Source: Candidatus Pacearchaeota archaeon (GTDB lineage Archaea > Nanobdellota > Nanobdellia > Pacearchaeales > UBA284). Taken from it: a DNA stretch of 64,000 nt. Positions 20,619 through 62,679 of this stretch are shown here, piece by piece. The translations under genes were made by a program, and so were the position numbers. Each line of letters begins with the position of its first letter. The first letter of the stretch is position 1. The notes below the pieces were generated by a model. The model searched no databases. It was given only the letters and a program-made list of their open reading frames with translations, and was not told where the DNA came from. The DNA lies in the NCBI GenBank assembly GCA_026395795.1, contig JAPLYB010000040.1:5464-69463 (forward strand), in the 5' to 3' direction.

Positions 20619-20636
20619 TTTTAATTTTTTTAAGTT

Positions 20637-24800: not shown

Positions 24801-24801
24801 T

Positions 24802-28219: not shown

Positions 28220-28657
28220 TCACTTAATTTCGCATATCTTTCTTAATTTAGAATACATCACATTCAAAAAATTTAAGACTTTTTTTGCGTATTCTTCTGT
28301 AAGCATCGTTCCATAATATTTTATTCCATTCCTATAATATCTTACCTCATCTAGAAAGCGTATTTCAAATTCAGAAAACCCTAAATTTTCTAGATAGGAA
28401 ACTTCTGCTTCATGTGAATTCCCTGCATTGTAACCATCTAAAAACATTTTTGCCCTTATAAGTTCAAGAATAACGTCATAGCAAGAATCAACAACAAAAT
28501 TTGAGCTCATTTTTTCTTGAGTAATTGTTTTGAGTGTGACCTCCAAAAATTCTTTCTTTTTATCAGCTTCTTTTACCAAACTTTTTGCCCTTGCCTTATT
28601 GGGCATTTGTTTTTTTACAATTCCATCTTTTAGTAATTCATCAAAATTTTTTATCAT
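28220..28657 (-). CDS. HEPN-domain protein (toxin partner of upstream MNT)
   Basis: 145 aa helical ORF overlapping the 3' end of the MNT gene by 4 nt; HEPN-like composition. Confidence 0.45.
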   Translation of the reverse strand: MIKNFDELLKDGIVKKQMPNKARAKSLVKEADKKKEFLEVTLKTITQEKMSSNFVVDSCYDVILELIRAKMFLDGYNAGNSHEAEVSYLENLGFSEFEIRFLDEVRYYRNGIKYYGTMLTEEYAKKVLNFLNVMYSKLRKICEIK

Positions 28658-36510: not shown

Positions 36511-37065
36511 TTAATGCATTAGAATGTAACTTTTCTTATATTTTATTTTAAGATTATTAAAAAATTCTTCGAATAAACTATCTGCAAAAATAGGAACAGT
36601 AAATGCTTGATTAACAATCCACTCGCCATTGTTTTTTTTAACCATTCCAGGTTTTCCCTTTTTTCCTCTTAAAGCATTAACAACTTTGACTTTATTTGAA
36701 GCAGATAAAGAAGATAAACTATAAGAGAATAAAACTCTGCTTGAAAATTTTAAATTTTCAGACAAAGATTTTTTGTTTTTTATGCTATATCCCTCTCTTA
36801 AAAGAGCATTTATTAATAAATGCGGATTAATAAAAAAGTCTTTTGCAGTAACAACGCTAATATGGAATTGATCAATCTTCTGTATATTATCCAGTATATC
36901 CCTTGTAGGAGAATGATAAAACAAGACAGCAAGATCTATATCTCTTGGAAGAGATTTGCCTTTTACAGCAGATCCAAACACAATTAAGTCTATTACTTCT
37001 TTATTACTAAGTAAAAAACCCAATTTATTTTTTATTTTTGATATAATCTCTGATTTCATAAGCAT
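36511..37065 (-). CDS. minimal nucleotidyltransferase (MNT)
   Basis: LIVFGSAVKGKSLPRDIDLAVL motif (GS...D.D). Confidence 0.6.
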   Translation of the reverse strand: MLMKSEIISKIKNKLGFLLSNKEVIDLIVFGSAVKGKSLPRDIDLAVLFYHSPTRDILDNIQKIDQFHISVVTAKDFFINPHLLINALLREGYSIKNKKSLSENLKFSSRVLFSYSLSSLSASNKVKVVNALRGKKGKPGMVKKNNGEWIVNQAFTVPIFADSLFEEFFNNLKIKYKKSYILMH

Positions 37066-37357
37066 ATTTTTTCAGATTTAAACCATCTGTTTTATTTAAT
37101 TTTTGATTATATGACTGGGTGTAGGTTTTGAATAAACTAGAAATTTTGTTATAAATTTCTTTAAAATGAGTATTCAATAAAGAAAATCGATCTACATGAT
37201 TTTTAGGCAAAATTTTAATTTCTTTATAAATTAAGTAATCACAAAAAATAACAATTGCTTTAAAAAAATCAGAAACAGCAACATTAAATCTGTTTTTTTC
37301 TAAATTTTCTTCACCAGATTTTAAAAATTCTTCAGCAGTGTTTAATAAATCTTCCAT
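37025..37357 (-). CDS. HEPN-domain protein
   Basis: 110 aa helical protein upstream-overlapping the MNT gene; NVAVSDFFKAIVIFCDYLIY region HEPN-like. Confidence 0.45.
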   Translation of the reverse strand: MEDLLNTAEEFLKSGEENLEKNRFNVAVSDFFKAIVIFCDYLIYKEIKILPKNHVDRFSLLNTHFKEIYNKISSLFKTYTQSYNQKLNKTDGLNLKKYAYEIRDYIKNKK

Positions 37358-37443
37358 TAATATATTAATCTATTTTGCTATTTATAAACTTTTCGGTTAA
37401 TGCATTAATCGGATAGGTCTAAGTGCTCACTCGCTTCTTCCGA

Positions 37444-37497
37444 TCCTCTTTTACCATCTTTCTTATAAGAATAAAGGGTTTATAAAAATGACGAAAA
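37444..37497. repeat. 54-bp direct repeat copy 2, followed by a degenerate remnant of the giant-gene N-terminus (MVKEDRKKRVST*)
   Basis: Identical to 36098..36151; the minus-strand reading downstream continues with diverged homology to MVKEERKKASKLS. Confidence 0.9.
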
Positions 37498-37532
37498 CTT
37501 AGATGGGTTTATGATTGATTAAGTTATGCAAA

Positions 37533-38147
37533 TCATACAAACAATTTTATTCCAGAGATAAGCTCTACCCAGTTACAAGAATTGACTAAGACTATATGAT
37601 CTTTTAAAATTTGTTTTGCAAATCCATCTTCTTTACGAAGTGCATCAATAAAATTTTCCTTAGTAACAAACCTTATTGAAGGCTTATTCTTAATAGTTAT
37701 AAAACAGTTTTCAACTGCTTTTTCAACTTTTTTTCTGGTTTGAGTTTCTGCAATAATCAAAAGATCCAAATCACTTTCTTTGGTTTCGCTATATCTTGAA
37801 AAAGAACCAAAAACTAGTGCACAAGAGATATAATCTGAAACTTCATTTTCAAATTGAAAAAAAGGGCCTTTTAATTCTTTGTGTTTTTCTAAAAACTTTA
37901 ATCTTTTTTCTTCTTCAATTAAAGAAAAAATAATCTTTCCAGTCACACTAAACTCCGGTTTTATGATTCTTAATGGAGGTTCAATTTTTTGAGAGATTAT
38001 TTTTGCATCTAATAATTCATTGATGTATCTATACCCTATTTTTTGAGACACTTTTGCTTTTTTCAGCAAATCAGATATTCTGATATTAAAACTTTCATAA
38101 ACAATCTTCAAAAGATTATACTTCGCTTTTGAAATTGGGAATATCAT
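37533..38147 (-). CDS. nucleotidyltransferase (MNT) with N-terminal HTH
   Basis: LVFGSFSRYSETKESDLDLLII motif; N-terminal HTH-like KIGYRYINELLDAKII. Confidence 0.6.
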   Translation of the reverse strand: MIFPISKAKYNLLKIVYESFNIRISDLLKKAKVSQKIGYRYINELLDAKIISQKIEPPLRIIKPEFSVTGKIIFSLIEEEKRLKFLEKHKELKGPFFQFENEVSDYISCALVFGSFSRYSETKESDLDLLIIAETQTRKKVEKAVENCFITIKNKPSIRFVTKENFIDALRKEDGFAKQILKDHIVLVNSCNWVELISGIKLFV

Positions 38148-38653
38148 TCAAAACACCTCTTTTCTACAAAAGAAACAAATTCTTTTGTAAAATTATATAT
38201 CTTTGAAGCATCTTCTTTAGATAATTGTTTCCATTTTGTTACATCATATTGACCAATTTTTCTTAAAGAATAAGAAATTTCAAAACCGGTAAAATCAGAA
38301 AACTTTGTGCTTATCTTTCTAAGATTTTCATAAATATTTTGTGGAACTAAATCAAAATTTTTTAATGCTAAAATAGCACAAAAATGATCTTTAGAATAAA
38401 AACCTTGGAATTTAATTAGCAAAGCATTTATTGCATGATGAATGGCGTAATACGCTTTTATCACAACCCAATCCCAAGCTTCATTTTCATAATCTACCAA
38501 AATTTGAGATAGATCACTTTTAGCTTTTTCCAAATGAAGATTAAATTCTTCTTTTGAAACAAGGATATACTTTTTTAATTTTCTACAATTGCAAAATCCC
38601 TTGCTAATCGACTCTTTATTTTTTGGAAGTGTCGAAATAATATTATCTATCAT
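38144..38653 (-). CDS. HEPN-domain protein
   Basis: AYYAIHHAINALL HEPN-like helix; overlaps the downstream MNT gene start by 4 nt. Confidence 0.5.
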   Translation of the reverse strand: MIDNIISTLPKNKESISKGFCNCRKLKKYILVSKEEFNLHLEKAKSDLSQILVDYENEAWDWVVIKAYYAIHHAINALLIKFQGFYSKDHFCAILALKNFDLVPQNIYENLRKISTKFSDFTGFEISYSLRKIGQYDVTKWKQLSKEDASKIYNFTKEFVSFVEKRCFE

Positions 38654-43909: not shown

Positions 43910-44032
43910 GGACCCGTAGCTCAGTTTGGATAGAGCACTTGCCTTCTAAAGGCTCTCTTTAAAAAAGAGACCCTGGAGAGAAATCTCAAAAAAGACAGCA
44001 AGGGGTCGCAGGTTCAAATCCTGTCGGGCCCG
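43910..44032 (+). tRNA. tRNA-Arg (anticodon TCT) with ~48-nt intron at canonical position 37/38
   Basis: Manual fold: acceptor GGACCCG/CGGGCCC (one A:C at 3:70), D-arm GCTC...GAGC, anticodon stem CTTGC/GCAAG around loop CTTCTAA, T-arm GCAGG-TTCAAAT-CCTGT, discriminator G; 48 nt between the anticodon loop and the 3' anticodon-stem strand. Confidence 0.7.
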
Positions 44033-44082: not shown

Positions 44083-45357
44083 ATGGTTAAGAACATCGAG
44101 GAATATTCAGAACTTCTCGAGGACAAAGACCTCAGAAGATGGTACGAGAATGTTGGTAGAGGATCAAAGATAACTGCGGATGTTTATCTGAGAAGACTTG
44201 GCAACTTCTATAGAACTTATAAGAAAACTCCGAAGGAACTAATCAAGTTAAGTGAGAGAGGTGTTTACAACTTGATTCTGGATGTTATCGGAGATATGGA
44301 AAGCAAGAAATTTTCTGGGAGTTATATTCATTCTGTTATAAAGGCAATAAAGTCATGGTTAGCATTCAATGGCAAGGATATAAAGCGAAAAATAAGAATT
44401 AAGGGAGTTCAGGAAACCCCAACACTAGACAACGAAAGAATCCCTACACAAGACGAATTAAAAAAGATATTTTTGGCAGGGGATGAAAAAACAAGAACAG
44501 CATGCGCATTTCTTGCTCATTCTGGCTTGAGGCCCGAGGTGCTTGGGAATTATCGTGGAGATGACGGATTAAAAATAAGCGATCTTCCTGAACTTGAGAT
44601 TAAGGGCGATAAAGTTGAATTTAAAAAAATACCCGCCTTAATAAGAGTAAGGCCAACTTTAAGCAAAACAGGAAAAGAATACCTTACTTTCCTAAGTGAA
44701 GAAGGTTGTGAATATCTTAAAGCATATCTTGAAATGAGATTAAGAACAGGGAAATTAACAGAAAATTCAGCGATTATAACGCCAAAGCTGGCAAATAAAG
44801 AATTTATTACATCAATTAACATTGGAGATGCAATCAGGAAAGCCTTAAGAAAATCTGGTTTTCCTTGGCGTCCTTATGTTCTTAGGTCTTATTTTGATAC
44901 TCAAATGATGATAGCTGAATCAAAAGGCTTGATAATAAGGGATTACAGAACCTTCTTTATGGGGCATAAAGGAGATATCGAGCATGTTTATACACTCAAC
45001 AAAAAAAGGCTTCCAGAAAACATAGTAGAGAACCTCAGAGAATCCTATAAGAAAGCGCAAAAATACCTGCAAACAGGAGAAACTGGGAAGGATGAAGAAA
45101 TAACTAAATCATTCAAAAAACAACTATTGCTTGTCGCTGGCTTTAAAACTAGTGAGATTGAAGATAGCCAGTTAGCCCTTAATGATGATGAGTTTCAGAA
45201 GTTAGTAAGGGGGAAACTTCTTAAGAGTATGGAGAACAATGGCATCAAGCAAAAAATAATTCCCACAGCGCATATTGAAAATTATATAACGCAAGGATGG
45301 GAATTTGTATCAAACCTGCCGGATAATCGTGCAGTTATCCGAGTGCCCGAGAATTAA
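44083..45357 (+). CDS. int: tyrosine recombinase / integrase (intact, tRNA-adjacent)
   Basis: C-terminal catalytic region with AHSGLRPEVLG (Arg), HKGDIEHVYT (His..Tyr) motifs; 51 nt downstream of tRNA-Arg. Confidence 0.75.
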   Translation: MVKNIEEYSELLEDKDLRRWYENVGRGSKITADVYLRRLGNFYRTYKKTPKELIKLSERGVYNLILDVIGDMESKKFSGSYIHSVIKAIKSWLAFNGKDIKRKIRIKGVQETPTLDNERIPTQDELKKIFLAGDEKTRTACAFLAHSGLRPEVLGNYRGDDGLKISDLPELEIKGDKVEFKKIPALIRVRPTLSKTGKEYLTFLSEEGCEYLKAYLEMRLRTGKLTENSAIITPKLANKEFITSINIGDAIRKALRKSGFPWRPYVLRSYFDTQMMIAESKGLIIRDYRTFFMGHKGDIEHVYTLNKKRLPENIVENLRESYKKAQKYLQTGETGKDEEITKSFKKQLLLVAGFKTSEIEDSQLALNDDEFQKLVRGKLLKSMENNGIKQKIIPTAHIENYITQGWEFVSNLPDNRAVIRVPEN

Positions 45358-45677: not shown

Positions 45678-46140
45678 TCTTTCACCACCTTGTAAGCAGA
45701 ATTTAGATAATTCTCACATAAAATGCAACACAGAACATAAACATAAAACCCCAAACATGAAATGAATGGGGTTGGCATGTTACATGCCCTCCTTAAAGTA
45801 CATAACAGGAATCTTAAATACAAGAAAGTTAATATAAAACAGAACTGACTCTAATTTCTCATTCTTCAAATTACTCTGAAGCTTGATCATGTTTTTCCTA
45901 TCAAACTCTTTAACGCCATCAAGGGTTTTTATCTACTCTAACATATATTTTCAAGTATATATAAAGCTTTCTAATAGTATCACTGCAAAATGACAAACGA
46001 TAGAAAAATTTAAAAGAGCTGAAGTCTTATTTTATGAATCGCCCATTTTTTAAAAACCAGAATATAAAGAGGTTCAACTATTGACCGAAGATTTACATAA
46101 TTTTTATAAAGCTCGACAACTATACTTCATTAATAGGAAA

Positions 46141-46890
46141 ATGAGTAAAAGAGGACAAGTTACTTTATTTGTAATTATCGCGATTATTATAGTTGCTTTA
46201 GCTTTGTCCTTCTTTTTTATATTTAAAGAAAAGATTGCTATCCCAAGAATAGATCCAAAACAAATCATAGAAACGAGAACAAGAATGGATTACATCTCTG
46301 AGAAGTCAACTTATGATATTCTTTACAAAATTGGTGAACAAGGGGGTTATTTAGATTTACCCCCACAGTCTTTAATAACTGAAAACAAACAAATAGCCTA
46401 TTCACTTTATGATAATAAGAATAATCTTCCTTCTTTGAGTTTTATTGAAAACGAAATTTCAGATTATACGGAAAAAACCATTGTTTTTTATTTAAATGAT
46501 TATTACAGAACAAATTCAACAAGTTCAAACATAAACTCAACAAATTTTGATTTTGATAATATAAGTGTCCAAACAATCATACAAAATGAGGAGATTATAA
46601 TTAAAACTAGTCTTCCAACAACAATTCAGGGCAAAAATGATGAAACTTTTCACATAGATTCTTATACAACGACAGTTCCATTTCAGTTTGGTTATGTTTA
46701 TTCTATTGCTAAAGATATTACAGAAAGAAGATTAAGACATCAAGCAATAGACGAATCTTATTTCAGAAACAAGGCTCTTTCAGTTGATGTAATTCCTATA
46801 GACTCAACAAAAATCATCTATAGTTTAAAGAAGTTCGATAATGCAAACAATAAAACCTTTGTCTTCAATGTAGCTTTTTTTGAACCATGA
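46141..46890 (+). CDS. type IV pilin-like protein (class III signal peptide, SKRG|QVTLF)
   Basis: MSKRGQVTLFVIIAIIIVALALSFFFIF; ATG at 46141 preferred over TTG at 46081; shares GGYLD block with the other two pilin-like proteins; stop overlaps the giant-gene start (ATGA). Confidence 0.5.
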   Translation: MSKRGQVTLFVIIAIIIVALALSFFFIFKEKIAIPRIDPKQIIETRTRMDYISEKSTYDILYKIGEQGGYLDLPPQSLITENKQIAYSLYDNKNNLPSLSFIENEISDYTEKTIVFYLNDYYRTNSTSSNINSTNFDFDNISVQTIIQNEEIIIKTSLPTTIQGKNDETFHIDSYTTTVPFQFGYVYSIAKDITERRLRHQAIDESYFRNKALSVDVIPIDSTKIIYSLKKFDNANNKTFVFNVAFFEP

Positions 46891-49800
46891 AAAGAAAAAC
46901 AAACCAACAGATGATTAAAAGTGTAATTTCAATGTTTATAATTATCCTAATTATATCCACAACTTTTTCAAGTTCAGTCCAGATTGCAAAAGCAGATGAA
47001 ACCTTAAATCCTGAACAAAGCACAAAACTATTGGAACTTTTACATGATAAAACTTCAGCTTCAGCATATTTTTCAAACAAAGCAAACTTTAATCAAGATC
47101 CTTTTCTAAGCCAAGCTTATTTTGGAAACATTTCTACTTCTACATTTTCTTTTTGGAGAGATAAAAATTTAGTGTATAATAGCCAGAATAATGAGATAAG
47201 CAATAGCAAGTTCGTAATAAACTTAAATGATTTTTACCAAGACTCTTTGTTTTTTTATGGGGATAAAAGCATTGAGCTTAATGGAAACAAAATTTATGGA
47301 AATGCATATATATCAAAGGCAAATGATACTTTTGAAGAAACATTTATTCTTAAAACTAATTTTCCAAATCTTGATAAGATTCTTGTAACTTTCAAAAGCA
47401 ATAATGCAACAATAAATATCACCCCCGACAGCCTAGTTTTTCAGGGGCATGTTGTTGTAGATGTTTTCCTAAAAACCAAAAGAAAAATCTCTTTTGAATC
47501 ATTTAGTATCACAAAAATAAATAAAGACCTAAAAATAGAATCAAGAGATTCTTCATTAACTTTGTCAAAAATCTTTGAGCCAACTCAAAATAACTTTGAG
47601 TTTTATTTTCCAGAACACAAATTTCAAGGAACATCAATAATCTTCTTCAAAAATGCGAGCATTGACTCAATAGATAAAGCACAATTAATAAACTCTTCAT
47701 ATTTTGACGATAATTTTTATGCCAATTATAATAGTGGCTTCTTTTCTTATACTTTAAACAAGCAAAACTTATTTTTTAATTCAAAACCAACAACCTCGGG
47801 AATATTCATAGATTCAAATAAAATAACTGCTCGGGGAATTTTCTCAATATTTATTGACAAATCGCGCTTAAATATAAACTCTGAAAATGGAAATTCGGTT
47901 TTAGAGTATTCATGGACAAAAACGAATGATAATTATAACTATGAATATAGTGCAAATGGGAATTTAAGTATAGATACGAGAGATTATAGCACTAGAGGAG
48001 ATTTAAAAATTTCTGAGAAAACAACAGATAATATAAAAAATTTAGATGTCTCTTTACAATCAAGCCAATCAGCTGTATTAAAAATAAAAGTGTATTCTGA
48101 TGATTCTTACTTTTCAGAAGCTTTAGATATTCCTATAACCCTCAAAAAATCTACTAGTTCCTTTTTAATTGATGAAAAAACACTAAAACAGATAACTGAG
48201 TTAAAAACGAAAAACGGAATAGGTCTTTATTATTCAAAGATAAAAGTAACTACAGGAAATAATGTTCTTAATATAGACCCAGAGACTAGTTGGTTTAATA
48301 CAATTCAAATAGACAAATCAATTACGGGTCAGACTATAATAAACATTATTGGCAAAGCAATTCAAAATAATCCTGAAACAGAACCAGAAGGCAAGTTTAA
48401 TGTTCTTTCCCCAGACCAAGTTTCTCAAGAAATAGGACAAGTTAATGATGAAATTTGGATTGATGGTGTGCAAAATGCAAAACTTGAGACTTTTGCTCGA
48501 GCATTAAGGGAAGCAAAATGGCAACAAGCCTCTTCAATTCTTTCAGGGTTTAAGTCTTCAGGGGATGAAACAAACTTAGCCATATACAGTAGAATAAAAG
48601 AAAATGACCCCATTCTTGTTGAACAACTAGAGTCGAATCAATTTTCCTCTACCTTTTTTAAGAACCTCGCAAATTCTATAGATTATCTAAAAAAATCAGA
48701 AACAGCTGAACAAGAGTATTCTAATATTCAAAAACAGTTTTCAGCTAAAAATCTAAAGTATGATGTTTCTCCAGTAGAACTAGAATGCAAGAATAAATAC
48801 CTTCTTTATAACAGATTTCAGATTATTTCTCAGTCTGGAGAAAATTCAGAACAATCTCCAGTAGAATACAAAGCAAGTGAGATTGCAAGTTCAATTGGAG
48901 TTTCAGTTTATCAGCTATATCAATTAAACAAAGATCAATTACTTGGTGCTATTTATGATTTTGATAAAAACGAGATAATTGATTCAAAAACAAATGAACC
49001 TTTCTTATTTAATGAAAATATTACTTTTCTTGCTCCAGACACGCCCCTTACTTTGTCGGCAAAAGAACAATTTGTTGAATCTCTAAGAACACAAGTTTAT
49101 GCTTCAAGATACTACAAAACAGCTTATTCTGGGATAAAAAGCTTAACAACTGCGGATGAAGACGCAAGACAGCAAGTAGATAATCTAAATAATCAAATCG
49201 CAAATGACAAGAAAGTTTATGCTTTCCACAAATTCTTAAGAGATAATCAAATAGACAAAAAAATTCACGATAAAAAATATAGTGAAGCTTCTCAATTACT
49301 TGATAAATACCCTGAAAAATCATTTGTTTCTCAGTATATAAAAGAAAAACTGCAAGATAAAGAAATTGATTTTTCGCAAGGGGATATTTATGCTATGCCC
49401 ATAGATGAACAAACTCCTGGATTTGGTTTTACTGGAATGATTGTTGCTAATACAGAAACATTTTCAAGAAATCCCCTAATTCAAACTTTAATGGGAGTAG
49501 ATTCTTCTGTAAAATCTGGATTAGAGTCAGGTATAATTAAAAATTTCAGAGAGCAACTTGGATTAAATAAAGAAAGTTTATTGGATTCAGATGCATTAGA
49601 ACTTCTTGCTTCATACAACGCTCTTGAAGAGTATACTAACAAATACAAACAAATAGAAGTAGGCATTAATGACAAAACAATTATTCCTAGCGAAGCACTT
49701 GAAGAAGAAATTGCTATAATCAATCAAAAAATAGCAGATTACACTAAAAAAAGCGATAATCTTTGGTTTAATGCTTACAGAAAGTTTATGCTTTCTTCAA

Positions 49801-52577
49801 GCAATATCCCAACAAAAACAGTAAAATCTCCTTTAACAAATATTATTTATGATACTACAAAAACCTTTGAACAAAATAATTTTGACAAGCAAGCTAAAGA
49901 TGCGATTAAATTTGTTGTTTCTGTCGGAGTTATTGTCATAGCAGGAATAATTTCTGGAGGAACAGGCGCAGCAGTTGCTGGCTATTTAATAGAAGGACTT
50001 GGAGCAACTGCAACTTATGCAGCAACTTGTGCATTTGTAACAAATGTTGTTGTTTTTAGCGTTATAGCTTCTTATGGAAATGCTGCAATTCAATCTTCTT
50101 TTGAAAATGAAGATATCTTAACTGCATGGAACAATGAAATTGGCTGGAATCCTGAAAAAGGTCAAATTGGACAAAAATTTGTAAGAGATATTTCTTGGAA
50201 TTTCGTAATGTTTGGAGTCTTGCAAGGAACAAGCCAGTTTTTTAGAGAATGTAAATTCAATTATAATGCTTATAGCACATTAAAGACACAAGGATTGTCT
50301 GAAACAGAGATAAACTCTTTACTGAAAACTTCTGATGGAAAATTATTAGTCTCCAAATTTCTTGGCTCTGGAACAGGACAATTGCTTGCTCCAGTTTCTG
50401 AATTGGCTATATTTGATTTAATTGGGATAGGGCAACAAGGAACAGAAGTTGTTTTATCAAATGAGCTTTCTAAAGATGAAAAATTACAAGCAATAAAACA
50501 GTCTTTAGAACCATCAAGCATAGCAAAAATGTCTATTGATAATGCCAAATTTTTAATTGGACTTAAAACGGCAAATTCTGTTTTTTACAGTTTGACAAAA
50601 TCAATGCAATTAACAAATGAATTAAAGGCAAATTATCCACAAATGGAAGCAACAAGACAAGCACAATTAAAGGAGCTTGTCTCAACTGATTTACAAATCA
50701 GAGATAAGCTTTATGAATATGTCCAACAACCAACGAATGACAATCTAAGACAAAAATTAATCGACTTACAAGGGCAGGCACAACTTTTAAGGCAAAGTGC
50801 ATTAAGCCAACTCGGGAATTCTCCAGAAGATATACTGTTAAAATCAGAAATTTTGGATAAAGCGGGGAATGTTCCATTTACTTCTAGTAAAACATATCAG
50901 TTAGCTGAAAGATTAACCATTGATTCAAGAGTTGAAAGAACTTTCCTTTATGATGAAAAAAATCCAATAACAAGAGAAAATTTAGAAGAAATATTCCCCA
51001 ACGCTTTAATTCTAGAAGGCAAGGATAGAATCTTTACAATAATTAAAGAGGGAAACTCGTGGAATGTTGCAAAAACAACAGCAAGCGCTGAACAAATAAA
51101 TGCAGAAAAAAGTTCAGCAGAAACTTATAAGAAAACTGTTGTTGATGCGCCAGGAGTTGGAATGCTGGCGCTTCCTGCCTCAAATACCGTTCCTATCTCA
51201 GAAATTATGCAAAAATACTCCAATCAGGGAGTTGTTTTTATACACGCCTTAGACCCAATCGGTTTTAGCGGATATGAATCTTGGAGTTTAATAAGAAAAG
51301 GAGTTAGTTTGCAAGACAGGATGAATATTCTTTTAGGTTTAGAACCGTATATCGCAGCCTCAACAATTACACCAGGAGTTGGAGATAAAATCTGGAAAGG
51401 AATCGGCGTTATATTAAATGGAGGAGATATTACCTATGCATGTCCTGGCTCTGCCTGCTCAATATCAAAAGGAATATATGACCGAGTAACTTCTATCGGT
51501 GCACAAATTCCAAGAGGGCAATTAGATACAGACATAGATGTTGCAGTGAAGAGAGAGTATGAAAGCCCCACCACTCTTTCATCAGAATATTTGATAAAAG
51601 AGTATAATGAATTTGGGGTTAAAAATCCCAAAGTTGCGGCATTTTATATATCATTGGATTCTAAATTTAAGAATAGTATATCCACCTCTACGGCATTGAA
51701 GTATATACAAGAAATCTGTGCTAATCTGGGCTTGCCATTATATACTATCAAAGACGGAAGAATTTACGAAATAAAGAGCATAGAATATAAAACAAATAGC
51801 AATGGCGATTCAATTAGTTGGGAATTTATTCTTGGTAAGGAAATTTCAAATCAAGAAATTCTTCAAAGTGATTTTGAATTGTCTCCTCAAAATAAACAGA
51901 AGATGATGAGAGATTTATTTGCAATCTTTCCATTTTCAAATAATGAAATACAATTATACAGAATGTGGAGTATGGGCAGAGAAGCTTATATTGATATAAA
52001 TTCTTTAAAAAATCCTTCTGAATTTGAGGGGGAAAAGATTAATGTTAATGGAGAAGTAAACATTGCTTATATAATAAAAAATGGTCAGATTTTTAAGTCA
52101 GCTAGCACAACAACTTCTATGGGATTATGGGAGAATTATGGATTTCCTCCCAAAGCGATTTCTTTAAGATTAAATGGTGGATGCTTTACTTTTTTATTCA
52201 GTCCCAGAGAAATTCCACATCCCTCATCTAGACCTCCCCTTCTGGAAAGCAAGGATTTCTTAACTTCTATTCAGTCTCTTTCTAAATCAAAATTAGAAGA
52301 TGTAACGCGAGAAGATTTAGCTTATGCATTGTATGGATTCGGTGAAGAAGCAGCAAAACATAAGGATTTTGCAACCCAAAAAGTTGCATTTGAGATGGCA
52401 GAAAGAATGGGTTTTTCTGAAGCCAAATATGAAAATATAAGAGACTCTAGAGGATTTTTAAATAATGAATTTAAGATGTTCTTAGAAGACTTTAGTGATA
52501 AAGATGTAGGATTAGTAAAGGAAAAAATTGCAGCGGTATTTGGCTATATCCCTAGAGAATTTTATAAAAGTGAATAA
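46887..52577 (+). CDS. giant (1896 aa) low-Cys secreted protein with signal peptide and central Gly/Ala-rich TM block
   Basis: Signal peptide MKRKTNQQMIKSVISMFIIILIISTTFSSSVQIAKA; hydrophobic block AIKFVVSVGVIVIAGIISGGTGAAVAGYLIEGLGATATYAATCAFVTNVVVFSVIASYG; Asn/Ser/Lys-rich. Confidence 0.55.
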   Translation: MKRKTNQQMIKSVISMFIIILIISTTFSSSVQIAKADETLNPEQSTKLLELLHDKTSASAYFSNKANFNQDPFLSQAYFGNISTSTFSFWRDKNLVYNSQNNEISNSKFVINLNDFYQDSLFFYGDKSIELNGNKIYGNAYISKANDTFEETFILKTNFPNLDKILVTFKSNNATINITPDSLVFQGHVVVDVFLKTKRKISFESFSITKINKDLKIESRDSSLTLSKIFEPTQNNFEFYFPEHKFQGTSIIFFKNASIDSIDKAQLINSSYFDDNFYANYNSGFFSYTLNKQNLFFNSKPTTSGIFIDSNKITARGIFSIFIDKSRLNINSENGNSVLEYSWTKTNDNYNYEYSANGNLSIDTRDYSTRGDLKISEKTTDNIKNLDVSLQSSQSAVLKIKVYSDDSYFSEALDIPITLKKSTSSFLIDEKTLKQITELKTKNGIGLYYSKIKVTTGNNVLNIDPETSWFNTIQIDKSITGQTIINIIGKAIQNNPETEPEGKFNVLSPDQVSQEIGQVNDEIWIDGVQNAKLETFARALREAKWQQASSILSGFKSSGDETNLAIYSRIKENDPILVEQLESNQFSSTFFKNLANSIDYLKKSETAEQEYSNIQKQFSAKNLKYDVSPVELECKNKYLLYNRFQIISQSGENSEQSPVEYKASEIASSIGVSVYQLYQLNKDQLLGAIYDFDKNEIIDSKTNEPFLFNENITFLAPDTPLTLSAKEQFVESLRTQVYASRYYKTAYSGIKSLTTADEDARQQVDNLNNQIANDKKVYAFHKFLRDNQIDKKIHDKKYSEASQLLDKYPEKSFVSQYIKEKLQDKEIDFSQGDIYAMPIDEQTPGFGFTGMIVANTETFSRNPLIQTLMGVDSSVKSGLESGIIKNFREQLGLNKESLLDSDALELLASYNALEEYTNKYKQIEVGINDKTIIPSEALEEEIAIINQKIADYTKKSDNLWFNAYRKFMLSSSNIPTKTVKSPLTNIIYDTTKTFEQNNFDKQAKDAIKFVVSVGVIVIAGIISGGTGAAVAGYLIEGLGATATYAATCAFVTNVVVFSVIASYGNAAIQSSFENEDILTAWNNEIGWNPEKGQIGQKFVRDISWNFVMFGVLQGTSQFFRECKFNYNAYSTLKTQGLSETEINSLLKTSDGKLLVSKFLGSGTGQLLAPVSELAIFDLIGIGQQGTEVVLSNELSKDEKLQAIKQSLEPSSIAKMSIDNAKFLIGLKTANSVFYSLTKSMQLTNELKANYPQMEATRQAQLKELVSTDLQIRDKLYEYVQQPTNDNLRQKLIDLQGQAQLLRQSALSQLGNSPEDILLKSEILDKAGNVPFTSSKTYQLAERLTIDSRVERTFLYDEKNPITRENLEEIFPNALILEGKDRIFTIIKEGNSWNVAKTTASAEQINAEKSSAETYKKTVVDAPGVGMLALPASNTVPISEIMQKYSNQGVVFIHALDPIGFSGYESWSLIRKGVSLQDRMNILLGLEPYIAASTITPGVGDKIWKGIGVILNGGDITYACPGSACSISKGIYDRVTSIGAQIPRGQLDTDIDVAVKREYESPTTLSSEYLIKEYNEFGVKNPKVAAFYISLDSKFKNSISTSTALKYIQEICANLGLPLYTIKDGRIYEIKSIEYKTNSNGDSISWEFILGKEISNQEILQSDFELSPQNKQKMMRDLFAIFPFSNNEIQLYRMWSMGREAYIDINSLKNPSEFEGEKINVNGEVNIAYIIKNGQIFKSASTTTSMGLWENYGFPPKAISLRLNGGCFTFLFSPREIPHPSSRPPLLESKDFLTSIQSLSKSKLEDVTREDLAYALYGFGEEAAKHKDFATQKVAFEMAERMGFSEAKYENIRDSRGFLNNEFKMFLEDFSDKDVGLVKEKIAAVFGYIPREFYKSE

Positions 52578-54705: not shown

Positions 54706-55674
54706 ATGGAAAATAGTTTAAAAAAGAAAGTCTTAAAAAGTAGAAAATTGATAGTTATAATAGGAAAAGAGAGAAAAAAGATGGTTAAAAATATAAATCT
54801 TAATCTAAGATTTCTAAAAATTAACTATCTAAATAATATTTGTTATTATATCAAAGAAAAAAATCCTAAAGAAGTATTTACTTTAAAACTAATAAATTTT
54901 TTCAAAGAAAACTTTGATAGTAAGTCTATATTTAATTTTCAAGGGATGAACTATCGTTTTGGAGCAGTTGAAATTGGACAAAATCATATTTGTGGTAAAT
55001 TGTGGGAATTAAAAAAGAAACATGAAAAAGATTATCCTTGGACTGGAACGGATTATGAAATAAAACCACAGCTTGGAGCAGATTATCGTTTTGCTTGGTT
55101 TTATATAGACATTCAAACAAAACATTTAGTTTTACAGGATGAAAGAGATTTAACTCCAGATAAAGCTATTCAAGTTTTATGCTCATGGTTTGATGATTTT
55201 CATGGAATAAAAGAAGGGATAAATATTCAATACCTCAAAAGTAAAAAAGACTTTTTAAATGAATTGAAAGAAGCATATAAAATAGTTTATGCTAAATTTA
55301 TTTTGTATCCTAGTAATTTTGACTATGATGGTATAAGCAAACCATTAGATGATAGTCTTCATGCTTTAGAAATAAGTGAAATGAAACAAGAAATAAAAAG
55401 TAATAATGGGGTTAAATTGGAATTAGATAAGCCAAATGTTTTTTCTTCTTCGTTGGCTCAGGCATTAAGGGGTAATGGTAAAGACCCAGAAATAAAAACT
55501 CAAGATAAAAAAGGGAATATTACTATATTAACAAAAAAGATGAAGCATATAAAAAAGCAAATTCAAGGGTTTAAAGATATAAATGATATTAAGAAAATTA
55601 AACCACATCTTATTGCACAACTCAAAGAAGTTATTAAAGAAATGGATAATAAAAATGAAAGCAAAAGTGATTAA
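54706..55674 (+). CDS. hypothetical cytoplasmic protein (322 aa), first gene inside transposon
   Basis: ATG inside the left TIR; no recognisable motifs. Confidence 0.45.
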   Translation: MENSLKKKVLKSRKLIVIIGKERKKMVKNINLNLRFLKINYLNNICYYIKEKNPKEVFTLKLINFFKENFDSKSIFNFQGMNYRFGAVEIGQNHICGKLWELKKKHEKDYPWTGTDYEIKPQLGADYRFAWFYIDIQTKHLVLQDERDLTPDKAIQVLCSWFDDFHGIKEGINIQYLKSKKDFLNELKEAYKIVYAKFILYPSNFDYDGISKPLDDSLHALEISEMKQEIKSNNGVKLELDKPNVFSSSLAQALRGNGKDPEIKTQDKKGNITILTKKMKHIKKQIQGFKDINDIKKIKPHLIAQLKEVIKEMDNKNESKSD

Positions 55675-56140
55675 AGAATTTTTTAAAGCTAAGGCATTTA
55701 CTATTTCAGTGGTTATACTCTTACTTTATGCAATATTTTTTCATGGTAAAATAATAATTGATAAAGACAACTTAGAACACATATTTGGTTTTTTTCTTAC
55801 TCTATTTCCCTTAATAATAGCAATATTTACAATATTAATATCGTTTACAGATAATAAGTTTTTGAAATTCTTAAAAGATACAAAGGGAGCAGATAAAAAG
55901 ACGAGCATATATGATGAAATACTTGCTTATTTCATTATTAATACTATTTTAAGTTTGATAGCAGTTTTAATTGCTGGATTTGTCTTTTGTTTTAAACTAT
56001 CTGAATATGCTTTCTTGCAGTATATAATGATTTTTGTTTTTTCTTATACCATAATTTCATTTATTCAGTTAATCAGATTTATATTCTATTTTGCTAAGAA
56101 AAAAGCAGATTTTGTTAGTATAACTGAGAAGACATTTTGA
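55655..56140 (+). CDS. small 4-TM membrane protein, hypothetical (start trimmed to MKAKVIKEFF)
   Basis: Four hydrophobic helices; overlaps the stop of the upstream gene by 20 nt. Confidence 0.4.
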   Translation: MKAKVIKEFFKAKAFTISVVILLLYAIFFHGKIIIDKDNLEHIFGFFLTLFPLIIAIFTILISFTDNKFLKFLKDTKGADKKTSIYDEILAYFIINTILSLIAVLIAGFVFCFKLSEYAFLQYIMIFVFSYTIISFIQLIRFIFYFAKKKADFVSITEKTF

Positions 56141-57044
56141 TAAGTTCCAACCACTTATTATTCTCCTTCAACTTCAAATCAGTAGCCAATTCATAAGGTC
56201 TTTTATTGATAGCTTGATTTATCCTTATGAAATTATAATAAATCTCATAACCTTTCAAGATTAAATTAGCACTTCTCAAGCTTCCATGAAAACCACGAAA
56301 GACCTTAGTTCTCGCTCTTACATTATTATGCAACCTTTCAATAGGATAATTAAAAACATCTTCTTGTTTGCTTGTAACAACCCTATTATGAAAAACACTT
56401 TGTTTGCCCTCTTTCAAAGAATAACCAAAAACTTTCTTTACTGCTCCAATATAAGCATTTAAACCATCTGTTGTAACCATTTGAATTTTATTAGTTGTTC
56501 TTTCTTTTGCAGAGCTAATTATAGCAGTTATCTTCTTCTTACTTCTACATTTTGAATATTCAGAAGCTATCATAAATCTAGTAGTTGGGCAAACCCCATC
56601 TATAAAAAAGTTTTCTTCTGTTCCTTTAGATTTATGGCTTTTTCTTCGGTGATATTCAATTTCATCAAATTGTATTTCTTCTGAAATGTTTAGTCTTAAC
56701 TTATCTGTAAATTTACTTATAACCTTAGCATACTTCCAAACCCATCTTAGAATAGTTGAATGGTCTGCGTTATGTGGGAAGAACATGCCTAGATGTTCTT
56801 GAGTTCCACGAGTAGAAGCACCCCGATAAAATAAATCTACTGCCTGTGTTATCTTCTGTGGTGAGTTTCTCATTCTGAAAAAGCCATCATCAAGGGTAAA
56901 AGTTTTATTACAATCTTTACATTTATATCTCTGTATAAGCCCTCTATTTTCTGTTTTTCTTGTAGTCCATTTTATAGTATTCTCGGACTTGCAGAAGCGA
57001 CATATTATTTTATTCTTGGTATTTTGTGTTTCCATTTTATCCAT
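56115..57044 (-). CDS. IS6-family-like DDE transposase with N-terminal zinc ribbon
   Basis: CRFCKS...CKDC zinc ribbon; VTTDGLNAY (cf. IS26 TDKAPAY), NYPIERLHNNVRAR, FHGSLRSANLILKGYE blocks matching IS6/IS26 transposase architecture. Confidence 0.65.
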   Translation of the reverse strand: MDKMETQNTKNKIICRFCKSENTIKWTTRKTENRGLIQRYKCKDCNKTFTLDDGFFRMRNSPQKITQAVDLFYRGASTRGTQEHLGMFFPHNADHSTILRWVWKYAKVISKFTDKLRLNISEEIQFDEIEYHRRKSHKSKGTEENFFIDGVCPTTRFMIASEYSKCRSKKKITAIISSAKERTTNKIQMVTTDGLNAYIGAVKKVFGYSLKEGKQSVFHNRVVTSKQEDVFNYPIERLHNNVRARTKVFRGFHGSLRSANLILKGYEIYYNFIRINQAINKRPYELATDLKLKENNKWLELIKMSSQLY

Positions 57045-57148
57045 TTACCTTATAGGTATAACCTATTAAGTAATATTGACTATTTAAATCTTTCGCTTTG
57101 GGTATAACTTAATAGGTAAGTTTATAAACCATAAAAATATATATCTAT

Positions 57149-57316
57149 ATGGCAGAAATAAAAATTGAGGTAATGTCCTATAAGTGTGACAGATGTGGTC
57201 ATAAATGGATACCAAGAAATAAAAATAAACCGATTATATGCCCACTTTGTAAATCACCTTATTGGAATATACCTAGAAAAATCTTTAAAAAGGCGGAAAA
57301 TAAAAATGCAAAATAA
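57149..57316 (+). CDS. 55-aa zinc-ribbon protein (CxxC...CxxC), not in ORF track
   Basis: Translated by eye: MAEIKIEVMSYKCDRCGHKWIPRNKNKPIICPLCKSPYWNIPRKIFKKAENKNAK; promoter-like GTTTATAAACC ~25 nt upstream; overlaps MTase start by 11 nt. Confidence 0.45.
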   Translation: MAEIKIEVMSYKCDRCGHKWIPRNKNKPIICPLCKSPYWNIPRKIFKKAENKNAK

Positions 57317-58517
57317 AAATTATCTTGATATTATACTTGCAAAAAGCAAAAAACATCTAATATCTGAATTGGGTATAGCAGAAACTCAAAAGTTTATAGA
57401 AGAAGTTAAATCAAAAATAACATCTAAAGAAAATAAAGAGATTATTAAGCAATTTAATGAAATATATACTAAAAGAATTAAAGACAAATATCAAAAAGAT
57501 ACAAGCCCAGAATACGATAAAAGACTTTTTAGTTTTATAAAGAATAAAAATAACAAAATAAAAATAGTTTGGGGGGATTGTTATGAAAACCTAAAAAAAC
57601 TTCCTTCTGAAAGTGTGCATTTAATGGTTACTTCTCCGCCTTATTATAACGCAAGAGAATATTCGCAATACGGGGATTTAAATAAATATCTTGAAGATAT
57701 GAAAAAGATAATTACTGAGTGTTATAGGGTTTTGGACAATCATCATGTTTTTGTTTTTAATGTTGGCGATATTTTTGATAATGATAATTTAGTTAGTAAA
57801 TCGGTTTGGGGGGATAGAAGGTTGCCCCTTGGGGCTTACTTTATTAAGATATTTGAAGATGTGGGTTTTACTTTTGTTGATGACCTTATCTGGGATAAGG
57901 GAGAAGTAGAAAGTAAAAGGCATAAAAATGGGAATACTCCTTATCCATTTTATCAATATCCTATGAATTGCTATGAACATATTTTAATTTTTCATAAGCA
58001 TAGATTAGATACTACTCATTTTCCTTGCCCTGTTTGTGGCACATTACAAGTAAATGGAAATACCCAATCAGAAATAGGTTTAATGTCTTGGGAATGTAAA
58101 AACTTAGAATGTTTTGAGAGAAGTGCTAGTGACAGAGGAAAAAGATTTTCATTAAAAACTAATATGACTCAAAGTCCATCAATCAGAGAAGGTAATGAAG
58201 TGCCACATGATTTAATTAAAAAGTGGAGACGGGACATAACTAAATTTTCTCCTGTAATAAAAATAAATAGCAAAGGAGAAAACAAATTAGGGCATACAGC
58301 ACCATTCCCAGAAGACATACCCGAAATGGCAATTTGGTTTTATACTTATAAGGGGGATATAGTGCTTGACCCATTTGCAGGAAGTTTTACTACTTGTATA
58401 GTTGCTAATAAATTAAGCAGAATTGGGGTTGGAATGGAATTAAGAAAAGATTTGTTTGAGAAAGCTATAAAAGATAATTTAAATAAGAAGAAACAGGATT
58501 TTGAAGTTTTTAAATAA
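57306..58517 (+). CDS. DNA methyltransferase (N6-adenine/N4-cytosine, beta-class, ParB-MTase-like) with internal Zn-finger insertion
   Basis: MVTSPPYYNAREY (DPPY-type catalytic motif IV), C-terminal AdoMet-binding region LDPFAGSFTT (FxGxG-like), CPVCG...WECKNLEC insertion; start at MQNKNYLD rather than track start 57186. Confidence 0.8.
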   Translation: MQNKNYLDIILAKSKKHLISELGIAETQKFIEEVKSKITSKENKEIIKQFNEIYTKRIKDKYQKDTSPEYDKRLFSFIKNKNNKIKIVWGDCYENLKKLPSESVHLMVTSPPYYNAREYSQYGDLNKYLEDMKKIITECYRVLDNHHVFVFNVGDIFDNDNLVSKSVWGDRRLPLGAYFIKIFEDVGFTFVDDLIWDKGEVESKRHKNGNTPYPFYQYPMNCYEHILIFHKHRLDTTHFPCPVCGTLQVNGNTQSEIGLMSWECKNLECFERSASDRGKRFSLKTNMTQSPSIREGNEVPHDLIKKWRRDITKFSPVIKINSKGENKLGHTAPFPEDIPEMAIWFYTYKGDIVLDPFAGSFTTCIVANKLSRIGVGMELRKDLFEKAIKDNLNKKKQDFEVFK

Positions 58518-61114: not shown

Positions 61115-61744
61115 ATGAGCTATAAATTACTAATTAAGAAATTGATGATTGATAAAAAGAAGATTATCACGAGGGAAGAATTAAAAGAATATTGCAAAAA
61201 TTTTAAGATGTCTTATTCTTCTGTAATTGGGTATCTTCTCAGAAATAGGTATGCAGAAAGGATACTAAGAGGAATCTTTTATCTTAAAAGCATAGAAGAA
61301 AGAAAACTTAACAAATCAGACATGAGCTTCTACGAAGCTATCAAAGAAGCTCTAAGGATAAAGGGCGTTAAAAACTGGTATTTTGGCTTAGAAAGTGCTA
61401 TTAAATTAAACAACCTGACTCACGAATACTTTGCCATAGACTTTATTATTTCAGACAAAATAAAAAGAAAGAATACAATTGAGATTTTAGGGCATAAAGT
61501 CAAGTTTCTGACTATTAAAAAAGAGCTAATTAAGTTTGGCATTGAAAAGGGAAAAATCCCTTATTCAGATATTGAAAAAACAATTTTGGATATAGTTTAC
61601 TTGGGGATTTATCGGGGTTATTCGGAATCCACAATAAGAAACGACATAATTGATTATATTGATCTGTGCGACAAGGCAAAGCTTATTAATTATGCAAAAC
61701 ATTATCCTAAGACAATACTAAAGTTCATTCCAAAGACAAAATGA
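61115..61744 (+). CDS. AbiEi-like antitoxin/transcriptional regulator (putative)
   Basis: 209-aa ORF overlapping the start of the AbiEii-like NTase gene by 4 nt; typical AbiEi position. Confidence 0.4.
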   Translation: MSYKLLIKKLMIDKKKIITREELKEYCKNFKMSYSSVIGYLLRNRYAERILRGIFYLKSIEERKLNKSDMSFYEAIKEALRIKGVKNWYFGLESAIKLNNLTHEYFAIDFIISDKIKRKNTIEILGHKVKFLTIKKELIKFGIEKGKIPYSDIEKTILDIVYLGIYRGYSESTIRNDIIDYIDLCDKAKLINYAKHYPKTILKFIPKTK

Positions 61745-62679
61745 TAAGAAAAGAAGCTACTGGATTTATAAAAGAAAAGACAGGAATAAACAAAAGAGAA
61801 TTTATTGAAAAAGACCTTATTCTAAGCCAGCTTCTCTTTCATTTATCAAAAGAAAAATATTTCTTTGATAACTATGCTTTCAAAGGCGGAACTTGTCTAA
61901 TAAAATGTTATCTTGGATATTACAGATTCTCAGAAGACCTTGATTTTACTTACATAAATCAAAAAGAACTTGAAGGAAAAAGCATGAATCAAATGAGGAA
62001 GTTGGTTTCTGATAAAATAGACAAGGTTGCAGAGATACTTGAAAAAATCGCAAAACCCCTTGACTTGAGATTCAAAGCAGACAAACAGGATAAAGATCAC
62101 TTCCAATTTGGCGGAAGCAATGCATTTGTGACTTTTAAGCTCTGGTATAAATCAACCGAATCAGATAAAGAGAATTTCATTAAACTTCAAATCAATTACA
62201 TTGAAAAGCTTAATTATGCGATTAAAGAAATAAAAGCAAAAACTCTGCTATTGAAAGATTTTGAAAAGGAATTTTCTTCATTGTTTCCAGAAGAATTTGA
62301 ATTTTTAAAGCCCGCAAAAATCAAAACTTATGACATAAAAGAAGTTTTAATCGAAAAAATAAGGGCAATCCTGACAAGAAGGGGTGTTAAAGCAAGAGAT
62401 TTTATTGATGTCTATAAAATAACCAAATTAGAAAATCTTAAACTTGAAGATTTTAAGAAAGAAATAATTGACAAAATAAAAGCCATGCTAAAATTTGATA
62501 AATATCAAACTAACCTAGATAAAAAACAGGAAACTAACTTTTCAGCGGATATAGACAAAGAAAAAATAGTAGCTGAAGAAGAAAAGATTCTCCTTGTGCC
62601 TATCCCAGAAGATTTTGCAAAATTTTTGTCTGAATTTAAGGTTTTTCTGAATGAAATTATTTTGTCTTTAAAGAAATAA
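61741..62679 (+). CDS. AbiEii/DUF1814-family nucleotidyltransferase toxin
   Basis: FKGGTCLIKCY...RFSEDLDFTY matches the FKGGTAL...DIDF signature of AbiEii nucleotidyltransferases. Confidence 0.65.
   Translation: MIRKEATGFIKEKTGINKREFIEKDLILSQLLFHLSKEKYFFDNYAFKGGTCLIKCYLGYYRFSEDLDFTYINQKELEGKSMNQMRKLVSDKIDKVAEILEKIAKPLDLRFKADKQDKDHFQFGGSNAFVTFKLWYKSTESDKENFIKLQINYIEKLNYAIKEIKAKTLLLKDFEKEFSSLFPEEFEFLKPAKIKTYDIKEVLIEKIRAILTRRGVKARDFIDVYKITKLENLKLEDFKKEIIDKIKAMLKFDKYQTNLDKKQETNFSADIDKEKIVAEEEKILLVPIPEDFAKFLSEFKVFLNEIILSLKK

Follow-up and report, generated by a model that had tools for sequence, protein, structure and literature searches.

The locus described here raises the question of what a very large secreted protein does when it is encoded directly behind a small pilin-like protein in an archaeon of the Pacearchaeota. 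The analyzed DNA is a stretch of 64,000 nucleotides (nt) from Candidatus Pacearchaeota archaeon (assembly GCA_026395795.1, contig JAPLYB010000040.1, positions 5,464 to 69,463 of the forward strand). This whole stretch is called the window, and positions are counted from its first letter. The two genes under study lie at 46141–46890 and 46887–52577 and encode a small protein and a protein of 1896 amino acids (aa), referred to below as the giant. Comparison with related loci (labelled L with a number) showed a conserved body of ~1300 aa carrying what appear to be interchangeable, enzyme-like C-termini.

A two-gene operon with a pilin-like first protein

The operon consists of the following parts; in the signal motifs, the cleavage site is marked with a slash.

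45678–46140, plus strand: AT-rich intergenic region of 460 nt upstream of the operon, with no Rfam match
46141–46890, plus strand: small protein, 249 aa, no Cys; class III (prepilin-type) signal MSKRG/QVTLF, hydrophobic helix and alpha/beta globular domain of ~210 aa
46887–52577, plus strand: giant, 1896 aa

The TGA of the small gene overlaps the ATG of the giant gene as ccATGAaa, and this arrangement shows what is predicted to be a translationally coupled two-gene operon. Overlaps of 8 nt between the small gene and the giant gene were seen in three related loci. The mechanical open reading frame (ORF) of the small gene opens at TTG 46081, which was rejected as the true start; ATG 46141 is the likely start, because the homologues begin M-x-KRGQ. 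A box approximately 30 nt before this ATG, TTTTTATAAA, is a candidate archaeal TATA box.

An earlier reading of the DNA, made from its letters without database searches (the sequence-only reading), had noted the ATGA overlap and had called the pair the third module of its kind in the window, with a pilin-like small protein sharing the layout of two others. All of this was borne out. The small protein is a true paralogue of the other two (25–27% identity), the three are the only family members in the window, and the other two modules are as follows.

20637–21416, minus strand: paralogous small protein, 259 aa, 8 Cys, of a Cys-rich module; giant at 16560–20618
24802–25584, minus strand: paralogous small protein of a Cys-rich module; giant at 21510–24857

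A profile built from the three window paralogues retrieved 261 relatives of 240–310 aa, none with a Pfam domain, and those bearing a source name were nearly all from metagenome-assembled genomes of Pacearchaeota or other DPANN archaea. The gene directly 3′ of the small gene was large in 16 of the 16 modules examined (three in the window, two each in L003 and L015, and one each in L001, L002, L004, L005, L006, L010, L012, L013 and L014). The downstream product had at least 389 aa, often as a fragment at a contig end, and at least 1115 aa where a single downstream gene was complete. The small-protein family is lineage-wide and stands directly upstream of a large secreted protein in all modules examined. 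The usual partner is a Cys-rich giant of 1100–1350 aa, homologous to the 1352-aa and 1115-aa giants of the window, which are also homologous to each other. The general module of small protein and giant is core and syntenic in complete Pacearchaeota genomes.

The small protein begins with MSKRGQVTLFVIIAIIIVALALSFFFIF. Its class III signal, MSKRG/QVTLFVIIAIIIVALALSFFFIF, has a short basic leader ending in [KR]-[GA], Gln at +1 and a hydrophobic helix. An alignment of 65 family members shows almost no variation in the motif [KR][GA]-Q-[VI]-T-[LI]-F-(I/V)-I-I-A, whose position varies from 4 to ~50 residues after the start Met; a variable leader followed by a conserved Gln after the cleavage site is the signature of a prepilin-type signal. 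The AlphaFold2 model, made with the family alignment (pLDDT 88, pTM 0.78), has a helix at residues 4–29 followed by the alpha/beta domain. No curated pilin family matched (Pfam, none at E ≤ 0.1; NCBIfam, PHROGs and PADLOC also empty), phmmer and hmmsearch of the family against PDB sequences gave no match, and Foldseek of the model against the PDB gave nothing significant (best E 0.03). The small protein is therefore placed in the pilin class by its signal motif only, and its processing and assembly are predicted.

Two loci, L014 (11945–14446) and L015 (11637–14003), have the small gene and two Cys-rich proteins (~520–570 aa and ~770–800 aa) followed by four more small proteins with N-termini resembling class III signals, an arrangement that resembles a minor-pilin operon.

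A Cys-poor giant family with a conserved body and unrelated C-termini

The giant has 7 Cys (0.4%), compared with 4.7% for the 1352-aa and 5.7% for the 1115-aa giant, which confirms the low Cys content read from the sequence. It had also been described as rich in Asn, Ser and Lys. Compared with housekeeping proteins encoded in the window, Asn (7.4% vs 4.5%) and Ser (10.2% vs 4.7%) are indeed elevated, and Lys is not (8.2% vs 9.6%). The focal pair avoids Cys, unlike every other surface protein of the window. The giant was divided into the parts below, all on the plus strand.

46887–46994: signal peptide, residues 1–36, Sec-type, ending IAKA/DE (hydropathy; hydrophobic core from residue 5)
46995–49892: ectodomain, residues 37–1002, ~965 aa (composition; 58%, 42%, 30% and 30% identity to four homologues)
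49893–50090: Gly/Ala-rich hydrophobic helical hairpin, residues 1003–1068 (Kyte-Doolittle and Hessa-scale scans; conserved in L006 and L010)
50091–50876: conserved amphipathic helices and coiled coil, residues 1069–1330 (last part common to the orthologues in the three-orthologue alignment)
51192–52121: enzyme-like alpha/beta domain, residues 1436–1745 (211 HMMER matches, conservation, AlphaFold2)
52239–52556: helical C-terminal sub-domain, residues 1785–1890 (AlphaFold2 helices at model residues 389–486; G1817, A1822 and R1855 conserved)

Hydropathy confirmed the Sec-type signal peptide and the internal Gly/Ala-rich hydrophobic block that had been proposed earlier. The c-region of the signal peptide is unusually conserved, with T25, T26, S30, Q32, A34, K35 and A36 invariant in four homologues. 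The first ~500 aa of the ectodomain are rich in Asn, Ser, Thr and Ile, and the ectodomain as a whole has one Cys and no Pfam or PDB match. The complete giant had no match in Pfam, NCBIfam, PHROGs or PADLOC, and phmmer and hmmsearch runs with it found nothing among PDB sequences. Over all PDB-sequence searches, those with the small-protein and C-terminal families included, the only matches were coiled-coil noise and part of an orotate phosphoribosyltransferase (PRTase) at E 0.003, which was treated as chance.

No detectable similarity was found between the giant and either Cys-rich giant of the window, and the idea that it is a diverged copy of them was rejected. Hence, of the earlier description as a divergent, Cys-poor partner, "Cys-poor" stands, while the giant is a separate protein family and not a diverged paralogue. 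Its relatives came from a full HMMER scan and synteny look-ups; word-indexed searches with the full giant and with its C-terminus returned only the giant itself, and no relative of it turned up in GTDB genomes. The small proteins nearest to the focal one are P0036 (65% identity), P0068 (55%), and those of L006 (47%) and L010 (37%), and each of these four genes is followed by a homologue of the 1896-aa protein. The identity of the giants is 58% over 165 aa and 42% over 574 aa for two fragments at contig ends, and 30% over ~1300 aa for the full-length proteins of L006 (2157 aa) and L010 (1728 aa). This Cys-poor family (focal locus, L001, L002, L006 and L010) is paired with small proteins of 0–1 Cys, and the other 61 aligned small-protein members have 4–10 Cys each. 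The pattern of identities across the pairs indicates that small gene and giant diverge together, both having lost Cys. No description of the small-protein family or of the Cys-poor giant family was found in the searched literature.

Three full-length orthologues were available: the focal giant and, from other metagenomes, L006:10001–16474 and L010:862–6048. Similarity among them stops at residues ~1305–1330, and the C-termini beyond are unrelated. The C-terminus of the L006 protein has two tandem atypical kinase-like units (VAIK, LKDL, IIDWEG) with Pfam Pkinase scores of 26.6–29.7 bits, below the cut-off. That of the L010 protein has a motif, FVVFDDISYSG, resembling a phosphoribosyl pyrophosphate (PRPP) loop, and a weak PRTase-CE match at E 0.0085. 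A shared body (residues 1 to ~1300) with unrelated C-terminal modules in all three proteins is the pattern expected of polymorphic toxins.

The L006 giant (L006/L007 10001–16474) also contains a further region of ~300 aa of no assigned type; its gene is flanked by RuBisCO and EF-1alpha genes and by small orphan ORFs. The L010 locus has an ADP-ribosylglycohydrolase gene (6045–7034, minus strand; PF03747, E 2e-71) that is convergent with the 1728-aa giant gene and overlaps its 3′ end by 4 nt. Its position next to the PRTase-like module could be chance or could reflect a functional link to ADP-ribose/NAD chemistry.

The C-terminal module of the focal giant

The enzyme-like module at the C-terminus of the focal giant comprises ~560 aa. 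Residues 697–1896 were used in a HMMER scan over 1.8 billion representatives. The scan gave 211 matches and, apart from the L006 orthologue, these aligned to residues ~1436–1871. Most of them are ~600 aa long and open with a coiled coil, and a hydrophobic segment is absent from 144 of 149. The identified carriers are Candidatus Omnitrophota, Candidatus Tagabacteria and Parcubacteria, the latter two of the Candidate Phyla Radiation (CPR). By sequence, a DPANN archaeon thus has a putative enzyme-like domain in common with bacteria of the CPR or Omnitrophota. In one relative, two helix-turn-helix (HTH) domains are fused to it. The uncharacterized family of ~600 aa comprises P0123–P0270 and is present in L008, L016 and L017; in L008, a NUDIX gene comes after the family gene.

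H1453, S1492 (in an S-T-x motif), N1574-E1575 and four Gly are invariant or nearly so in the family, and all are kept in the focal protein. The focal module departs from the family consensus at two near-invariant positions, where D1522 is S and K1478 is R. The AlphaFold2 model of the module (pLDDT 78.8, pTM 0.80; core blocks mostly 85–98) has an alpha/beta domain followed by a helical sub-domain. Pfam, NCBIfam, PADLOC and PDB sequences contained no match to the C-terminal family, and neither did the plasmid and phage collections.

In what we take to be the ADP-ribosyltransferase pattern, His or Arg lies in strand 1, an S-T-S or Tyr motif in strand 2, and Glu opens a later strand. In the focal module, H1453 ends strand 1, S1492-T is in strand 2 with W1503 ten residues on, and Y-N-E1575 opens a long strand. 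The order of secondary structures is compatible with an ADP-ribosyltransferase, as a resemblance only, and no structural or profile similarity to ADP-ribosyltransferases was detectable for the module. Such an activity may be taken as a lead.

Topology, cysteines and glycosylation sequons

With the Kyte-Doolittle and Hessa scales, the giant has a signal peptide and only two adjacent, marginal transmembrane (TM) segments, residues 1009–1027 and 1042–1060, joined by a short loop without Lys or Arg. They form the hairpin, IKFVVSVGVIVIAGIISGGTGAAVAGYLIEG-LGATATYAATCAFVTNVVVFSVIASY, with repeated small-xxx-small spacing. A naive two-segment topology would place both large parts of the giant outside the cell, an assignment that is not secure. 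In the 1352-aa Cys-rich giant, both flanks of its hydrophobic block are outside, because both are Cys-rich and enriched in glycosylation sequons.

N-X-S/T sequons were counted and compared with composition-preserving shuffles. The counts are given as observed vs expected.

1352-aa Cys-rich giant: 28 vs 14.2
1115-aa Cys-rich giant: 20 vs 12.5
Beta-helix giant (1320 aa): 37 vs 20.3
PKD protein (909 aa): 17 vs 9.9
Focal giant, ectodomain: 8 vs 15.0
L006 giant, ectodomain: 6 vs 12.5
L010 giant, ectodomain: 9 vs 11.6
Focal giant, after the hairpin: 0 vs 6.8
L006 giant, after the hairpin: 0 vs 7.5
L010 giant, after the hairpin: 1 vs 3.5
Non-membrane proteins of the window: 33 vs 44.2
CPR relatives of the focal module: 272 vs 299.6

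The other surface proteins of the window, including all large proteins of the surface-protein locus at 13965–36111, are 1.6–2-fold enriched in sequons. In the Cys-poor giant family, sequons are depleted, above all in the part following the hairpin; counted by themselves, the three unrelated C-terminal modules have 1 sequon vs ~12 expected. Such avoidance is expected of a polypeptide that meets the glycosylation machinery and yet needs to stay unmodified. The depletion is consistent with a two-segment topology and also with disulfide-forming Cys having been lost.

Function of the pair and competing explanations

We tentatively favor a reading in which the giant is a host-contact protein, partnered by a pilin-like protein and anchored by its hairpin, that presents or delivers a variable enzyme module; this is possible, with a fair amount speaking against it. 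The small protein would be cut by a prepilin peptidase and would then form a membrane-rooted pilus-like stalk, anchor or short fiber presenting the giant. The giant would be a Sec substrate anchored by its hairpin, its two large parts lying on the outside, where it would contact the partner (host) cell. On contact, the C-terminal module, free of disulfides and glycans, might be passed into the host in the style of polymorphic effectors, with the hairpin serving as a membrane-insertion element. The module would work only in a cytoplasm, because it would presumably need ATP, PRPP or a similar nucleotide cofactor. The effector-like reading is placed first, because the sequon and hydrophobicity data favor an external location. 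Pacearchaeota reportedly attach strongly to their hosts, and pili-like appendages of ultrasmall cells reach into host cells (PMC7906910), so a host-contact role is plausible under any reading. In its most specific form, that of a contact-dependent effector system in which the pilin-like protein presents the giant, the hairpin inserts in the host membrane and a swappable, nucleotide-dependent module enters the host cytoplasm, the proposal is improbable. If true, Archaea would gain their first described device for delivering polymorphic effectors, with one cargo domain common to CPR bacteria, the other great group of ultrasmall episymbionts.

Several observations weigh against this host-contact reading. 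We know of no contact-dependent effector delivery of this kind in archaea. None of the three full-length giants is followed by an immunity-like gene on the same strand, and the downstream genes are convergent in all three loci. The bacterial relatives of the focal module are ordinary-looking soluble proteins encoded among housekeeping genes in the three loci examined, and the module has no recognizable toxin or enzyme fold (Foldseek against the PDB and BFVD, nothing below E 0.04). Genes for a pilus ATPase, a platform protein or a prepilin peptidase were not found within the 64-kb window. Both TM segments are marginal, with a single one above threshold in L006. A weak third segment, residues 1101–1119, could put the C-terminus inside the cell, and is too polar for the Hessa threshold. 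The signal from sequon depletion is indirect and comes from three proteins.

The same topological doubts lead to the closest competitor, a receptor in the style of the SPEARE proteins of Nanohaloarchaeota (PMC6642349). Were the membrane crossed an odd number of times, a host-binding ectodomain would be held by the pilin-like partner and the C-terminal output or processing module would lie in the cytoplasm of the archaeon itself; different lineages would have plugged different outputs (kinase-like, PRTase-like, CPR-type domain) onto the same sensor. This would suit the soluble relatives of the module, which mostly have no signal peptide (144 of 149) and one of which is fused to DNA-binding HTH domains, the need of kinase-like and PRTase-like modules for ATP or PRPP, the coiled coil before the module, as in many receptors, and the missing immunity gene. 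The flank after the weak third segment is also net positive (6 K/R vs 4 D/E), and the single segment above threshold in L006 points the same way. A cytoplasmic tail should, however, show the background sequon ratio of 0.75–0.9, and the three tails have 1 sequon vs 17.8 expected; the polarity of the third segment counts against an odd number of passes, and a receptor gives no reason for the loss of disulfide-forming Cys in both the ectodomain and the partner. We consider the receptor rather unlikely. Decidedly improbable is a structural adhesin or envelope protein, that is, a variant of the common module with non-catalytic C-termini for binding or scaffolding, in which low Cys and few sequons reflect drift or another folding route. 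The core, syntenic position of the general module and the look of the Cys-rich giants, which are like classical glycosylated surface proteins, are in its favor, as are the lack of a catalytic family assignment for the focal module and its off-consensus residues at D1522 and K1478. Against it, the focal protein has kept every one of the family-invariant H, S, N-E and Gly residues, the kinase Lys and Asp motifs are still present in the L006 protein and a PRPP-loop-like DD-x-S-G in the L010 protein, and drift explains neither the loss of Cys from two genes across five loci nor the avoidance of sequons in three unrelated modules. A known defense system was rejected as an identity of the locus, as PADLOC had no match for either gene.

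tRNA-Arg, integrase and the origin of the module

The module had also been proposed to be horizontally acquired cargo of an island integrated at a tRNA-Arg gene by the adjacent integrase. The junction just upstream of the operon is real.

43910–44032, plus strand: tRNA-Arg (anticodon TCT) with an intron of ~50 nt after position 37 (Rfam RF00005, 51.3 bits, E 4e-8)
44083–45357, plus strand: tyrosine recombinase (integrase), 424 aa (phrog_1, E 5.8e-10; Pfam Phage_integrase, 22.9 bits, below the cut-off)

The intact tRNA gene has the anticodon loop CTTCTAA and an intron at the canonical 37/38 position. It was detected by Rfam alone and escaped ARAGORN in bacterial mode. Its acceptor stem has one A-C mismatch. 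The integrase gene starts 51 nt after it, and the tRNA-Arg is a possible left attachment (att) site of an integrated element. The cargo explanation also draws on the 18 kb that follow, where 52–64 kb contains orphan ORFs, a DDE transposase, an N6/N4 methylase and AbiEi/AbiEii pairs, and on a GC content slightly lower on the module side (0.28–0.35 vs 0.31–0.38 in the core).

The remaining results argue against the island. The tRNA region has no exact repeat of ≥12 nt within the window, and a mismatch search and blastn (word size 7) for an att site gave nothing better than chance on either side; this search covered the window, which ends before any right-hand boundary, and the contig runs ~8 kb beyond. 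Composition was compared with the core, a check that the sequence-only reading had proposed, and was host-like. The GC content at third codon positions (GC3) of the giant is 0.210 vs 0.241 in the core, its relative synonymous codon usage (RSCU) correlates with that of core genes at 0.94, and the tetranucleotide profile of 44–52 kb matches the rest of the window (correlation 0.97). Viral contigs of IMG/VR contained no relatives of the giant or the integrase. The family is confined to Pacearchaeota-type contigs, and both full-length orthologous modules stand among core genes (EF-1alpha and RuBisCO; histidyl-tRNA synthetase and ribosomal protein S2), without an integrase. Island cargo is therefore not supported and is considered unlikely; transfer between Pacearchaeota is possible.

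Gene neighborhood in the window

The window has a GC content of ~33%. Its first 16 kb include housekeeping genes, among them purine biosynthesis, topoisomerase and glutamyl-tRNA synthetase genes. A 413-aa ORF resembling a LAGLIDADG-type homing endonuclease (9848–11089, minus strand, TTG start) lies directly upstream of the topoisomerase gene (7531–9813) on the same strand.

Surface proteins are encoded from 13.9 to 36 kb in a locus whose synteny extends to complete Pacearchaeota genomes; this Pacearchaeota locus (window 13965–36111) is also present in L012, L013 and L004. The conserved gene order is beta-helix giant, PKD protein, Cys-rich protein of ~750–810 aa, small protein, Cys-rich giant, DUF7847 membrane protein, GTPase, OapB and OapC. 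In the window copy, the module of small protein and giant is tandemly duplicated. Small ORFs with a minimal nucleotidyltransferase motif (e.g. GSYAFGEDTINSDVDIAI) stand beside small helical partners at 28220–29202 and 36511–38653; judged from their translations alone, they look like putative MNT/HEPN-type toxin-antitoxin pairs between surface-protein genes.

Downstream of the giant, the region 54706–58517 includes a DUF4747-like ORF of very low GC (0.25), the DDE transposase with an N-terminal zinc ribbon (56115–57044) and the N6/N4 DNA methylase (57186–58517). An AbiEi/AbiEii toxin-antitoxin pair is located at 61115–62679 (PADLOC, E 7e-49 and 3e-75), and a second AbiEi-like/DUF6577 gene at 62999–63928.

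Significance and comparison with known systems

How DPANN archaea attach to and exploit their hosts is largely unknown, and Pacearchaeota have no cultured member. The locus defines an unannotated, lineage-wide pilin-like family that accompanies giant surface proteins, a subtype in which the giant, with its interchangeable enzyme-like modules, appears to avoid disulfides and glycosylation, and an uncharacterized domain common to CPR/Omnitrophota bacteria and a DPANN archaeon. All three are concrete, testable candidates for host recognition or manipulation. In addition, comparing sequons and Cys is a cheap way of sorting archaeal surface proteins into functional classes.

The nearest relative in organization is the Cys-rich Pacearchaeota module (16560–25584; L003, L004, L012 and L013), with which the focal locus shares the small-protein family, the gene order and the tight spacing; the 1352-aa Cys-rich giant also has an internal Gly/Ala-rich hydrophobic block. 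The Cys-rich giants differ from the focal one in being non-homologous, in their 4.7–5.7% Cys and twofold sequon enrichment, and in having no enzyme-like modules, and their module belongs to a conserved core locus by DUF7847, GTPase and OapB/OapC genes.

Bacterial type IVa minor pilins work with PilY1, which is thought to ride the fiber tip and contact other cells. The similarity of the focal locus lies in its pairing of a small pilin-like gene with the gene of a large non-pilin protein. The giant and PilY1 have no relation in sequence or fold and belong to different domains of life, and PilY1 has neither a membrane hairpin nor a swappable enzymatic C-terminus. In polymorphic toxins (CdiA, Rhs, MafB), a long N-terminal body is conserved and the C-terminal modules vary. 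The conserved body, unrelated C-termini and low Cys content of the giant family, and the ADP-ribosylglycohydrolase gene abutting the giant gene in L010, are reminiscent of them; unlike these toxins, the focal system has no same-strand immunity gene, pre-toxin motif, recognized toxin domain or known secretion partner.

Archaeal type IV filament (TFF) loci encode pilin-like proteins, often with large adhesin-like proteins (PMC4858521; bioRxiv 10.64898/2026.04.22.720090). The [KR]G/Q class III signal and hydrophobic helix of the small protein and its very large secreted neighbor are as in TFF loci, and the several small proteins in a row in the L014 and L015 operons are like minor-pilin sets. Unlike in TFF loci, no assembly ATPase, platform protein or peptidase is encoded nearby and no known pilin Pfam family matches; the globular part of the small protein is unusually large (~210 aa) and had no Foldseek match in the PDB, and the giant, with a Sec signal of its own, has a hydrophobic hairpin in place of Ig or beta-helix adhesin repeats. 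The SPEARE proteins of Nanohaloarchaeota combine a large ectodomain, which bears laminin-G or other adhesion domains, with a membrane anchor and, in the cytoplasm, a type III restriction-enzyme domain (PMC6642349). They share with the focal giant the character of a giant DPANN envelope protein with a large extracytoplasmic part, an anchor towards the C-terminus, a cytoplasm-type enzyme domain and a proposed host interaction. Unlike them, the focal giant has no laminin-G, protease or restriction-enzyme domain (no Pfam domain at all), is much smaller, and has a pilin-like partner gene and a variable C-terminal region, and its sequon statistics argue against a cytoplasmic tail. The locus thus partly resembles TFF loci, PilY1 systems, SPEARE proteins and polymorphic toxins, and fits the full definition of none of them.

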